Source: Eledone cirrhosa (lineage: Eukaryota). Taken from it: a stretch of 64,000 bases of DNA. Location of the stretch: contig OZ024743.1 in NCBI GenBank assembly GCA_964016885.1, positions 73,222,001 through 73,286,000 of the forward strand, given 5' to 3'. Below the pieces are notes generated by a model. The model ran no database searches and had not been told where the DNA came from. It saw nothing but the letters and a program-made list of their open reading frames with translations. The translations under genes and the position numbers were made by a program. Of this stretch, positions 11,300-60,121 are shown piece by piece. Each line of letters begins with the position of its first letter. Position 1 is the first letter of the stretch.

Positions 11300-14076
11300 A
11301 ATTGAAGACTAAAATCCAAAGAGGGCTCGATAAGGAAAATATATATCAAATATATAAGAACCGTAGAGCAAATATTTATTAAAATAACAGATTAAAGTTT
11401 AAGCAAAGAATCGCTGCTCTCACCCTTAACGGGATCTTCTGAAACTAACAAAGTCAATCTGTAAACGCAGAACTGGATATTTCAAAAAACGTTGCAACCG
11501 GAGGAAGACAGGAAGACGATACTTTGGTTCGTGGAAACGTTCCCTGGCAAAGAACGGGAAAAAACGAATAATACGTCATTAACAGGAGCGGTGAAAAACA
11601 ATTACGCGCAAAGACAGAACCACGTTTATGGTATAAAAGAGGTCGTAGACTAATGTTCTCTTAGGTGGTGCATAGAGACGTTCTCTGGCAATGAACGAAA
11701 AAACGAAGATAATACGTCATATGTGCAGCGTAGAGAACAATTACACGCAAAGACAAAACCACGTAAATGGTATAGCAGAAGTTGTAGACTAAAATTCTAA
11801 CTAGGAGACCAAATGAATCTCCGCTACAGGGTTAAGAACAAAGTAAATAAATACAATACAGAAGTAATAGAAACAAATAAATACATACACGCAAACAGAT
11901 ACGTACATACACAAGCATCAGCAAAACCTTACCATAGGTATACAAAACCACGCACATATAAATATGTGTGTGTATGTATGCTTGTGTACAAATAAATAAA
12001 TAATTATATAAACGTATATAAGTAAATAAATACGTATATAACCAGCGCACACGCATACCTTCAAATAAATACACGAATGTTCGGAGACGTAAGTCACCTA
12101 AAACAAGAAGTACACATATACACACACCCACCATACGTACGAACCTACATACTCACGCAGACGCAAAACTCCCGTATACACATAGCCAAACCCTAAATGC
12201 CAGAATATGTAAAAATTATACGCCATAACAGTCAAATATACATACGAGAAGGTATACATACCTTCACAAAACATACGGGTAATATATACTTACCTATGCA
12301 AATAAGTAAAGGAATAAACAAAACATATACTTAGCTCCCACATCAAGACGTAAAATATCCACGTATAGATCGTGCTAACCGTTAGGGTATAACGTGGGGC
12401 TGTAATACAGGAAAGTTTTGTGCAATTTATGTTTACAAGCCGAAATTGCCTCAGATTTGTTGTTTAAGATGTGGTCTGTGGCGTAGAGTATTTCCAGGGC
12501 CTCAGCGGCGCAGAGGTCACATGGTCTTTTATTTCCGTTATACGATCTAGCCCTAGCTAGGATCTCCCAGTGTAACTTATATTGGGTGTGGTTGTCTTTT
12601 AGACTCCAGATATAAGCTGAAAGTGACGTCATATTCCTTCTTAGAGGGTAACGAAAAGAATGGGTATGCATGTAAAGACGCTGCTTGAAACTATTGGCGG
12701 TTAACCATATGTAGGCCCTACGGGACGTGGGTGTTACAACCTTACATTTGTAGACAATGTTACTAGAGAGGCATTTCCCGGATAGGGGGCAATCAGCCCG
12801 ATTCCTACAATTACAGTTAGTACTAACTACAGGGTTGCACGTGTTCCTACGGCTAGGTAGTTTAGCTAAATTTGAAGCTGTGATGTTATGTGCAAGGTTA
12901 GGAGTCGTAGAGTAAGAAATTTTAATAGTATTTCTATTAAAAATTTTACTATACTTATGTGTAGGGGGAAAATGCTTCGTAATAAGGGAAAGAAAGATCT
13001 TAGCTAATGGTGTGGCCACCTCCATATTATATGGTGGGTTAAACCAACAAATGCGACGGGATCTATTTCTTCTAGGTCTATTTTCGTACTCTGTATATGC
13101 TACCGTATCGACAAATCCACTTCGAGCAAGAGCTTCATTGTAATAAGTGGAATGGTCGTTGAAAATGCGCTCGTTGGTGGAAAGACGGGAAAGTCTCAAC
13201 GAAACGTTTTTTACCAGGTTCTTGGTTATGCTGGCAGGATGGTTGGAATGCTTACTTATGTAATTAAGCGTATCATTCGGCTTTCTATACGGGTAATACA
13301 ACCCATTCAATAAATTGAGGGTAACGTCGAGGTAATTAACGACCGAGAGATTGGCCTCAACCTGTATAGAGAGGTTGAAGCCTTTAAAGAAGGCTGTGAG
13401 TTCTTTTCTGAACCTGTCGCAAGCACGAGGTCCGCACTTAGTCATGGTCAAAAGACCATCGTCACGGTACAAACCACCGCCCGCGTTGGGGAATTCGTCC
13501 TTGATAGAGAAAAGAAGGAAAAGGCCAATAAGATCAGTAACCTCCGCAGAGTCACTGGCGCCCATACTCACGTCGAATGGGGTACTATTGGATTTTTTAA
13601 TCCAAATAGAGTCGTCGAAATTAATCACCGACTTTCGGGCATTAAGGATGACAATTAAGTCTACAACTTCTGCTATACCATTTACGTGGTTTTGTCTTTG
13701 CGTGCTATTGTTCTCCACGCTCCACATATGACTTATTATCTTCGTTTTTTCGTTCATTGCCAGAGAACGTCTCTATGCACCACCTAAGAGAACATTAGTC
13801 TACGACCTCTTTTATACCATAAACGTGGTTCTGTCTTTGCGCGTAATTGTTTTTCACCGCTCCTATTAATGACGTATTATTCGTTTTTTTCCGTTCTTTG
13901 CCAGCGAACGTTACCACGAACCAAAGTATCGTCTTCCTGTCTTCCTCCGGTTGCAACGTTTTTTGAAATATCCAGTTCTGCGTTTACAGATTGACTTTGT
14001 TAGTTTCAGAAGATCCCGTTAAGGGTGGAAGCAGCGATTCTTTGCTTAAACTTTAATCTGTTATTTTAATAAATAT
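11300..14076 (-). mobile_element. 5'-truncated Penelope-like retroelement (family A, Naiad-like) with inverted partial pLTR
   Basis: RT+GIY-YIG ORF, about 1.07 kb 3' UTR ending in (ATT)n at 11300. 13658-14076 is an inverted copy of about 11372-11790 ending in (TA)n. Confidence 0.93.
12375..13657 (-). pseudogene. PLE reverse transcriptase (C-terminal half) plus GIY-YIG endonuclease, 5'-truncated
   Basis: FDVSMGASDSAEVTDLIGLFLL, GLYRDDGL, VNYLDVTLNL, HSNHP, WFNPPY, CxCx5Cx5C linker, IVYK..AYIW(G)LT..FKQRLYMH, CDLC..E, LNNKSE..CKH. The first ~33 aa of the tracked ORF come from the inverted arm. YIG is changed to YIW. Confidence 0.93.
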
Positions 14077-14089
14077 ATATATATATATT

Positions 14090-14222
14090 AGAAAGTGAGG
14101 TGTTTTTTACAAAATGAAAAATAACCGAGGTGTCCTACACGAGTGAAAGTATAAAGAAAAAGAGATGAAATCGAAAATGCAACTGGAGTTGCATTTTCGA
14201 TTTCATCTCTTTTTCTTTATAT
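14090..14222 (-). mobile_element. Family H mini-insert: short hairpin plus tail in (TA)n
   Basis: Perfect ~30-bp inverted arms around CAACTGGAGTTG. Homologous to 22117-22212. Confidence 0.75.
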
Positions 14223-14239
14223 ATATATATATATATAAT

Positions 14240-14661
14240 ATAATATAAGATCAAAAGATGGTTAAAAGAGATCAAAGTGTTTTATTATGCGCATTTCAAA
14301 AACAAATATCATGATGGGATAATATCTGCGTTCTCATCAGATAAAATAGGGAGACATGATATGAAGCTTAAAAAACACTTGTGAATAGTCAAGTTTTAAA
14401 TCAACATATGTTGATTTAAAACATCACTGATCACAAGTGTTTTTTAAGCTTCATATCATGTCTTCCTATTTTATCTGATGAGAACGCAGATATCTTCCCA
14501 TCATGATATTTGTTTTTGAAATGCGCATAATAAAATACTTTGAACTCTTTTAACCATCTTTTCATCTTATATTATTTATACGCCAGTCCTACAAACTGTA
14601 GAGTGCTACTTATCCGATATTTGCATTGCTTTATTGTGCTACAATAATACTCACCTCCTAC
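14240..14661 (+). mobile_element. Palindromic hammerhead element plus ~85-nt tail in (TA)n
   Basis: Arms 14240-14407 and 14408-14575 centred on TCAACATATGTTGA. Tail 14576-14661. Confidence 0.85.
14467..14537 (+). ncRNA. Type I hammerhead ribozyme, intact core (mirror copy on - strand at about 14280-14348)
   Basis: TATTTTAT-CTGATGA-GAACGCAGATATC[loop]GATATTTGTTTTT-GAAA-TGCGCA-TA-ATAAAATA. Palindromic stem III AUGCGCAU, AUA cleavage. Confidence 0.92.
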
Positions 14662-14677
14662 ATATATATATATATAG

Positions 14678-58247: not shown

Positions 58248-58329
58248 CTATTGACTACAAACACACACATATATATATATGAGACTGTGTGTGTATGTAT
58301 GCATATATGTATATATATATATATGTCAG

Positions 58330-58932
58330 GTCACCAGTTGGTGCTACTGGTAACATGTATCCCAGTACAACCTGTCACATGGTCGGGTCGTTGGCGACTA
58401 AACTGGCAACCCCACCAAGTTTTCTTGGTGAGGAGGGTGACTTTGGACATCCTGCAGGACTAAAAACAAAACCTGTCAAAGGGCAAAGGAACTCTTAAGA
58501 GTCAATCGCCATCCAAAATCACCGGGAGAGATGACCCCTTAGACTTTGTCAAGGCAGAATTCTAGGAGAAGGAAAACTCTGATATAACACCTGCAACCCT
58601 GATGGTATCCAATGATGTTGACTTGTTCTCCTTTTTGGTAAATATCATCTTGGTCAAGAGAGTGGGACTGGCTTTGTGCAGTGCCTTTGCTCAATATAAA
58701 AGCTTCACGGCACAGGCATTGCATTATATCTGGAGATCTCGCTGCACTTGTCGTCACATGGTACCATGGGCCTAGCACTATGTGACTATAATTGTCACAA
58801 GTGTAGTGTTTGTACCAGAGTTTTCAAGTCGCTAGCTGGACTAAAAAGTCACACTCGTTCAGCGCATCGCTAGGGGTTCTCCTACATGGATATAAAGTAG
58901 TGGCCGTACTCGAAAACGAGTTGGCAGCCACC
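58330..58932 (+). mobile_element. Bipartite non-autonomous RTE-derived element
   Basis: UTR-like 5' part fused to C2H2 terminus CSVCTRVFKSLAGLKSHTRSAHR* and 3' end ..ACGAGTTGGCAGCCACC before (AT)n. Confidence 0.65.
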
Positions 58933-59594
58933 ATATATATATATATATACATATATAACAGATATATATATGTATATATATGTATAGATCTTCTAGTGTT
59001 CTTATATATTTGATATATATTTATCCTTATCGAGCCCTCTTTGGATTTCAGTCTTCACATTTATTATTATTATTACTATATATATATATATATATATATA
59101 TATATATATATACAGTATATATATATATATATATATATATATATATATATATATATATATATATATATATATATACATATATATGTATATATATATATAT
59201 ATATATATATAGGCGTGCCTATGCGCGGAGATGCTAAAGACTAGACTACTGTAGATCTTTAAAGGCAGGAAAAAAAGTTGCCATCGGCTTCTCTGTAGTA
59301 TGTGGAAATTTTACCTCCTATGAGGGTCTTAAAAGCCATTTTATAATAGCATCTCCAGGCATGAGCCCACCGTTCTTTATATTTACTTTATCCCCTTAAT
59401 GCTTCGTAAAAGTCATAGAGAATGGCCACTTATATACTATACATGGATTTATATAAATGTGTGGGCGTGATATAAATCCGTATATCTTGTCTGATGACCC
59501 TGTGATAAACAGGCCTCACTATTCAGCTATGATGAAATAAATACTCACACACACACATATATATATATATATATATATATATATATATATATAT

Positions 59595-59790
59595 ATAGGA
59601 AAAAGTATGACCCCGGTGGCAGAGCTCAAGCCGTTTTGACGGCTATTTCAGTCCAGAAATAGCCGTCGAAACGGCTTGAGCTCTGCCGTCGGGGTCATAC
59701 TTTTTCCTATTTCCCACTCTACTACCCTAAGTATTGAGTACTCTGGTGCGTTATGGTCCATCTGGTTACTTACCACATTTCCTTTGTTAT
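59595..59790 (+). mobile_element. Family B hairpin plus 80-nt tail in (TA)n
   Basis: Arms 59595-59649 and 59656-59710 contain the 3' half of the hammerhead (GAAA-CGGC..GCCG-TC-GGGGT). Confidence 0.85.
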
Positions 59791-60121
59791 ATATATATAT
59801 ATATATATATATATATATTAAAATAACAGATTAAAGTTTAAGCAAAGATTTGCTGCTTAAACTTTAATCTGTTATTTTAATAAATATTGCTCTACGGTTC
59901 TTATATATTTGATATATATTTATCCTTATCGAGCCCTCTTTTGACTTTATTCTTCAGATTTATTATTATTTCTATATATAGGCAAAGTTAACCTCAAATC
60001 CCGCCGAGGTTAACTTAGCCTTTCATCCTTACGGGGTCGATAAAATAAAGTACCAGTAATGTACTGGTGAATTGATGGCCTTGTGCCAAAAGTAGAAACA
60101 ATTATTATTACTATATATATA

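Follow-up and report, generated by a model that had tools for sequence, protein, structure and literature searches.

The stretch analysed here, called the window throughout, is 64,000 nt of the Eledone cirrhosa genome (3.0 Gb; assembly GCA_964016885.1, contig OZ024743.1, positions 73,222,001 to 73,286,000 of the forward strand), and it holds insertions of Penelope-like elements (PLEs) in whose tails a small bulged RNA hairpin recurs. The hairpin has the form NCUC-Y-stem-loop-R-UH-GAGN, usually followed by ACU, and there are two copies per element of the Hydra clade of PLEs. This twin hairpin is a real and apparently undescribed RNA element of a known PLE clade, and it predicts both insertion ends. 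An earlier note, drawn from the sequence alone, had cited 11 hairpin strings in tails that it assigned to unrelated families. All 11 lie exactly where it placed them; ten are the first hairpin (hairpin 1) of a PLE tail, the one at 14580 with a mismatch, but that at 6686 is a deletion artefact.

Hairpins and elements in the window

Repeats were mapped by masked self-BLAST; a direct repeat search was swamped by microsatellites. The features that concern us are given below with their strand (ORF, open reading frame; RT, reverse transcriptase; EN, endonuclease; UTR, untranslated region).

6686..6697, +, no hairpin: tail remnant with the hairpin deleted (relatives L389, L391, L393)
11302..14076, -, insertion of a Hydra-clade PLE, family A, with inverted arm 13655-14076 (no tail), ORF truncated at its 5' end, 3' UTR, hairpin 1 and tail
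11325..11369, -, hairpin 1, family A; inverted arm stops 2 nt 5' of it
11420..11441, -, candidate degenerate hammerhead-like core, by eye, 5' of the family A hairpin 1
12378..13652, -, RT-thumb-GIY-YIG ORF fragment with CxCx5C linker, family A
14580..14604, +, hairpin 1 of an ORF-bearing family, after palindrome 14240-14575; one mismatch in this copy
14715..14760, -, hairpin 1, family A, an addition to the earlier list (covariance model)
21676..21695, +, hairpin 1 of an ORF-bearing family, after palindrome 21288-21671
30246..30285, +, hairpin 1 of an ORF-bearing family; tail to about 30334
33200..33245, +, hairpin 1, family A, also an addition (motif scan, covariance model)
33472..33490, +, hairpin 1, relative of 21676 (string check, masked self-BLAST, covariance model)
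42148..42177, +, hairpin 1; the copy is a read-through one and related to the non-coding unit of 567 nt
42261..42278, +, hairpin 2 in the 42148 copy, with one mismatch; no other hairpin 2 was found across the window
42944..44693, -, insertion of family B with EN fragment 44167-44631; the end at 42944 has no tail, and the inverted arm 44618-44693 bears one
44625..44645, +, damaged hairpin in the family B inverted arm 44618-44693
45077..45096, +, hairpin 1, after palindrome 45036-45071; longer copies have a hammerhead core upstream
50509..50533, +, hairpin 1, following palindrome 50193-50500; in this family a non-coding tandem unit of 567 nt has both hairpins
59716..59739, +, family B hairpin 1, preceded by palindrome 59595-59710; the tail extends to 59787
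59889..59934, +, family A hairpin 1, preceded by palindrome 59816-59882; the tail extends to about 59970

The string at 6686-6697 had been read as a minimal hairpin, but it has no loop and cannot fold, and its relative L391 shows that a deletion between two ACTC repeats removed a real hairpin. At 14580 the mismatch is C.A, where other copies of the family read ACTC. The earlier note had inverted arms stopping 2-8 nt 5' of the hairpin, and we measured 2-6 nt in the window (gaps of 2, 4, 4, 5 and 6, plus 4 and 4 nt). Covariance-model matches at 35777, 63718, 20842, 56522 and 26 were set aside, not having been established as elements.

Pairing, layout and insertion ends

Scanned strictly for RCTC-stem-GAGY with a 3' bulge of 2 nt, the window has 5 matches (shuffled level 1.0, from 20 local dinucleotide shuffles) and 570 kb of genome taken at arbitrary round coordinates have 56 (shuffled level 28, from 4 shuffles), so the motif exceeds shuffled DNA in both, as the earlier note required of it. 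In the 570 kb, bulges of 0, 1, 3 or 4 nt were no commoner than in shuffled sequence; in the window the bulge of 0 gave 4 against 1.2. Inverted arms flanked by (TA)n were also sought without reference to the motif. Of the 49 events so obtained, about 28, judged by eye, have the motif some 20 nt or less from the arm end; the remainder are false events or belong to short-tailed families.

Covariation was judged by permutation and by counts on a tree. In 48 non-redundant upstream regions from the same genome and from metagenomes, anchors were picked by sequence alone, without pairing information, which yielded 87 anchors against 9.2 in shuffled sequence, 6 in ORF DNA and 20 on the reverse strand. 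Exactly two anchors occur in 30 of the 48 regions. The inner stem covaries with the 2-nt 3' bulge, as had been claimed: in that register inner positions 1-4 pair at 0.77, 0.64, 0.58 and 0.50, against 0.46, 0.27, 0.25 and 0.24 when permuted (each p=0.0005), and the other bulge registers reach p<0.05 in 1 of 20 cells. An alignment of 72 rows has 99.7% of its cells paired and 29 two-sided changes, a level reached by none of 500 shuffles, with slid controls at 20-51%. The outer pair also covaries (G-C in 65 rows, U-A in 6, A-U in 1), although this is not independent evidence because the rows were selected for outer-pair complementarity. Hairpin 1 keeps its first inner position paired in 30 of 30 cases, and on a FastTree phylogeny built from 38 RT proteins this pair changes 6 times, both sides changing each time; the deeper pairs of hairpin 2 show frequent mismatches.

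A covariance model, trained partly on families A, B and C from other loci, finds 8 of the 11 cited sites (it misses 14580, 45077 and 6686) and adds three. Across 700 kb it gives 63 matches, of which 45 have (TA)n within 130 nt downstream, compared with 14% of background positions, and 24 have it upstream. As a separate observation, a metagenome element (L176, about 5093-5115) and the 14580 family share a 21-23-nt hairpin stretch that is 95% alike with no other DNA similarity between them; convergence or deep conservation are both possible. That the motif is enriched merely twofold in bulk DNA, and that one cited site is an artefact, might be taken as signs of chance matches in AT-rich repeat DNA. 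We give that idea a negligible chance, for it is refuted by register-specific covariation over 48 independent elements and is countered further by the tree-based changes, the 72-row alignment and the insertion ends that track the hairpins.

Read 5' to 3', the layout is hammerhead, hairpin 1, spacer, hairpin 2 and start codon. The second hairpin was seen in tandem copies of family A, where another hairpin of the same form stands past the end of the tail (5 loci in one set), and a hairpin 2 past the distal end is likewise found in families B, C and 50509 and in two more non-coding units. The 21676 family has it in 7 of 8 matches to a search pattern that covered the 5' half only (one mismatched), and the 30246 family in all 12 loci fetched out of 55 matches (one mismatched); the single read-through copy of the 14580 family has an imperfect one. 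Spacing between the hairpins is 52-111 nt in the 30 two-anchor elements and 135 nt in the 567-nt unit, and the start codon follows hairpin 2 by 15-87 nt. A canonical hammerhead core precedes hairpin 1 by 48-80 nt in 20 of 27 elements; the cores of families A, B and C are degenerate. Hammerhead-like folds with altered catalytic cores were noticed in the genome's most abundant families (11420-11441 and 43034-43046, both on the minus strand, and L065:7063-7170).

Insertion ends, taken as read-through junctions aligned to other copies, follow both hairpins and mostly stand 2-8 nt 5' of one or the other. In the source genome 210 of the 255 alignment ends lie between -12 and +1 relative to the start of a hairpin; of the other 45, 32 lie at +107 to +157, near the query end. 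These 255 are not independent, two family pairs being counted twice and some loci overlapping. In metagenome contigs 13 of 20 ends lie between -8 and 0, and such ends occur at both hairpins. Family A ends concentrate at -2 (42) and -3 (34), those of family B at -5 (33) and -3 (39), and a TAT ending 3-5 nt 5' of the hairpin is present at 55 of 87 anchors, compared with 1-8 at other offsets. Since hairpin spacing is variable (52-111 and 135 nt), the distal end follows hairpin 2 and not a fixed length. Hairpin 2 itself is absent from inserted copies and visible in read-through copies. In a single case (L114:5826-5903) a family B arm begins 25 nt 5' of hairpin 1, by eye at the hammerhead cleavage position.

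These offsets bear on another possible function, in which the hairpins would serve translation control or ribonucleoprotein assembly in the 5' UTR and the ends would be set separately by UA-rich sequence. Hairpin 2 does lie close to the start codon. We nonetheless consider this highly improbable, given the near-fixed small offset of the ends from both hairpins despite TA-rich tracts nearby (the family A loop is one) and the retention of both hairpins in non-coding units.

The host elements and the limits of the motif

Two young and very abundant families, A and B (103,998 and 63,605 candidates on a first look), are the source of the ORF fragments at 12378-13652 and 44167-44631. Their proteins, as read from translations, have a C-terminal GIY-YIG domain, a CxCx5C linker, DKT, and CxxC/CxH near the C terminus in place of CCHH, and PMC8557442 (section 11) gives a C-terminal GIY-YIG, CxCx5C, DKT and CxxC/CxH as the features of the Hydra clade. 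Family B has a single 717-aa ORF comprising RT and C-terminal GIY-YIG EN, with DKT in place of DKG plus RWR (RWK in family 30246), and the family A fragment is 55% identical to its protein. A Pfam search of both PLE fragments matched no family. The predicted model of a relative had TERT as its best match; a predicted two-copy fold of residues 1-480 of a relative scored 0.00, which has no bearing either way on a dimer. An assignment to Naiad was rejected because the EN is C-terminal here and N-terminal in Naiad.

That most of the families are non-coding was not confirmed. The tails of 21676, 30246 and 14580 are the 3' ends of ORF-bearing families whose read-through copies run into Hydra-type ORFs; the families are therefore related, and only some are parasites. 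A metagenome scan added 77 loci of Hydra type, which share 41-53% identity with the query. Every coding family that we traced falls in the Hydra clade, and by their protein features the hairpin-bearing coding families are to be regarded as members of that one clade and not as unrelated lineages. What does stand is that non-coding parasites carry the hairpin. Family 50509/42148 is a 567-nt tandem unit whose longest frame is 68 aa, and locus L078:817-2592 holds a 592-nt non-coding tandem unit with both hairpins and no Hydra protein match. Neither L078 nor the surroundings of 42148 and 50509 have a canonical hammerhead core, though a degenerate one can be made out by eye in L078. A shorter non-coding unit with both hairpins was seen at L119:1700-2400, and at 31248-32839 of the window an older copy, related to family A, whose inverted arms are long.

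The elements resemble the Hydra-clade PLEs of PMC8557442 in their protein features, (TA)n targets (the insertion target of the families examined here), inverted arms and tail, and in part in the hammerhead. They differ in tail length (about 50-135 nt here, 30-40 there) and in their often degenerate hammerhead cores, and the family B tandem unit, at 3531 bp, exceeds the Hydra-clade norm of <3 kb, many metagenome contigs being 2.3-3 kb. The portions of PMC8557442 that we consulted credit the tail to endonuclease resolution and describe no hairpin motif. By eye the motif is nevertheless clear in 3 of the 6 Hydra consensi in its File S7, imperfect in 2 and unrecognised in Hydra-1_Obim; coral and sea cucumber are represented among those that show it, and Hydra-1_Ajap has two tandem copies and the 3' end TATATT. 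Three diagnostic 8-mers occur at least 15 times in the archive of that paper; among the places listed, 4 in Hydra consensi are hairpins and those in Naiad and Chlamys have no hairpin context. Non-LTR retrozymes (PMC7229834; bioRxiv 10.64898/2026.07.22.740005) are likewise short non-coding tandem units, related to the pseudo-long terminal repeat (pLTR) and presumed to be moved in trans. They are defined by a hammerhead, and those papers leave their RT cis signal open, whereas the units here have twin hairpins and no canonical hammerhead core.

Outside the clade, NCUC..GAGN is absent from the roughly 55-nt tail of a Neptune-type PLE with inverted arms (DKSG, Cx4CxxC; L119:5542-9406 and L088:6263-7664) and from the RNA of PAc, a Poseidon element, as given in Fig. 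S1 of PMC11167929. In the window, (TA)n-flanked palindromic insertions with short tails and without the motif were observed at 14090-14217, 23161-23612, 47535-48023 and 5849-6333; they probably represent other PLE clades. A scan of the window against Rfam gave no match at gathering score among those listed, which were sub-threshold microRNA-type matches on simple repeats and palindromes, and the twin motif was not found by full-text literature searches, which do not extend to subscription papers, Repbase notes and figures. Within these bounds the earlier opinion that the motif is undescribed holds. The available portion of a 2026 repeat paper on O. vulgaris has no mention of Hydra elements.

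Other repeats in the window include a frequent 100-250-nt interspersed repeat resembling a short interspersed element, with many copies (539-1530, 4825-5180, 17385-17593, 35912-36964, 46579-46717, 59994-60111 and others), a fragment at 19319-20098 with a weak zf-RVT match that is probably the 3' end of a long interspersed element, and a 22-nt tandem repeat at 25456-25543 and 26849-27196.

Proposed docking of the reverse transcriptase and its alternatives

We favour the reading, with a probability of roughly 0.7, that each hairpin is an RNA dock positioning the RT on the UA-rich stretch just 5' of it. The earlier note had already proposed that the hairpin positions an RT start. That part has gained from the second hairpin lying 3' of the distal end and from ends that track each hairpin across variable spacing. 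Other parts of the note fared less well: the families have turned out to be related, and a fixed internal end with two RT starts was already known from another clade (PMC11167929).

As envisaged from these sequences, the EN would nick both strands of the (TA)n target, and each nicked 3' end would pair with the UAU next to one of the hairpins, the template being a sense RNA that is either circular or read-through. With one RT per hairpin, two cDNAs would extend 5'-ward and join head to head; the cDNA from hairpin 2 would copy hairpin 1 and the spacer, which are the tail, and that from hairpin 1 would give the tail-less arm. Hairpin 2 would be lost unless copying exceeded one round (pLTR or tandem), and its survival only in such cases would fit the circular or read-through template proposed for PLEs in PMC4209133. 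Non-coding tandem units that keep both hairpins may be moved in trans.

RNA structure is known to hold an RT at a defined template position in the anchor elements of telomerase RNA, in hepadnavirus epsilon and in the R2 3' UTR. The present case would differ in having two copies, each 3' of its start, and nicked genomic DNA as the primer, and we claim no sequence relation. A closer precedent is PAc, for which PMC11167929 reports in vitro that both target strands are cut and extended, that two internal RT starts bound the tail, that RNA 3' of the start is required and that sense RNA works. Our elements share with it the AT-rich target and, on the model proposed here, would share the two internal starts bounding the tail, the extension of both strands and the need for RNA 3' of the start.

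Several points weigh against docking. The stem-loop that PAc carries is a different one, without NCUC..GAGN. Three of the five core pairs are invariant in the 72-row alignment, so a protein could read sequence as much as shape. A stricter anchor rule gives two hairpins in 33 of the 48 regions but leaves 8 with one and 7 with none, some of these being truncated or non-junction contexts. G-U and A-C are about equally common among inner-pair mismatches, which does not settle the acting strand, and on the sense strand the outer pair is an A.C mismatch in both L078 hairpins. Lastly, the 19 loci inspected of 81 matches to the 45077 family included no read-through copy or hairpin 2, most being (CT)n tracts.

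One alternative is that the motif acts as DNA, the GIY-YIG EN recognising it, either as a single-stranded hairpin or as duplex, in a longer cDNA and cutting at TAT 5' of it, so that the ends would be cleavage products. The lack of a G-U excess over A-C is in line with this, and the EN-mediated resolution invoked in PMC8557442, together with the D. virilis tail cited in PMC11167929 as needed for EN recognition, speaks in its favour. We consider it rather unlikely: the tail boundaries of PAc are RT start sites (PMC11167929), and the (CT)n at our ends, being variable and specific to family and end, fits slipping synthesis better than a clean cut. This (CT)n, of variable length, separates the distal end from (TA)n in 19 of 25 cases in family 45077 (L338-L362) and 9 of 28 in family 30246 (L308-L337). 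The internal ends of the same two families have it in 0-1 cases, as do the ends of families A, B and 50509; two families have (CA)n, each at 2 of 28 distal ends. The (CT)n suggests slipping synthesis at the RT start, with later repeat expansion or target choice as alternatives.

An antisense RNA template that primes itself at a fold-back, with the hairpins as stop signals (template boundaries) as in telomerase RNA, would turn the sense-strand A.C of L078 into G-U, and self-priming has been proposed for head-to-head PLE repeats (PMC3846280). Yet the tail-bearing arm would have to pass hairpin 1 and stop at an identical hairpin 2, the TAT microhomology at both ends fits priming from (TA)n nicks, and the PAc sense RNA is active in vitro (PMC11167929); we hold the antisense scheme to be very unlikely.

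An extension of the docking model is more tentative, and we would give it somewhat less than an even chance: a pair of telomerase-related RTs docks on the twin hairpins, primes both (TA)n strands and, slipping on the short template there, inserts (CT)n, (CA)n and perhaps also (TA)n before synthesis proceeds.

The origin of the optional PLE tail and of head-to-head repeats is an open question in the PLE literature, for which the twin hairpin provides a defined, covarying cis-element. It also offers a marker, specific to the clade, by which PLE ends and the non-coding passengers of these elements can be annotated, and the 63 model matches in 700 kb would, if extrapolated, amount to roughly 10^5 genome-wide. 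There may be scope for programmable setting of internal start sites in an RT-nuclease of compact size (700 aa) to which no enzyme but telomerase is more closely related. Were a docked RT pair to slip beside the hairpin as outlined, one RNA code would explain the tail, the inverted arms, trans-mobilisation and part of the microsatellite load of the host.

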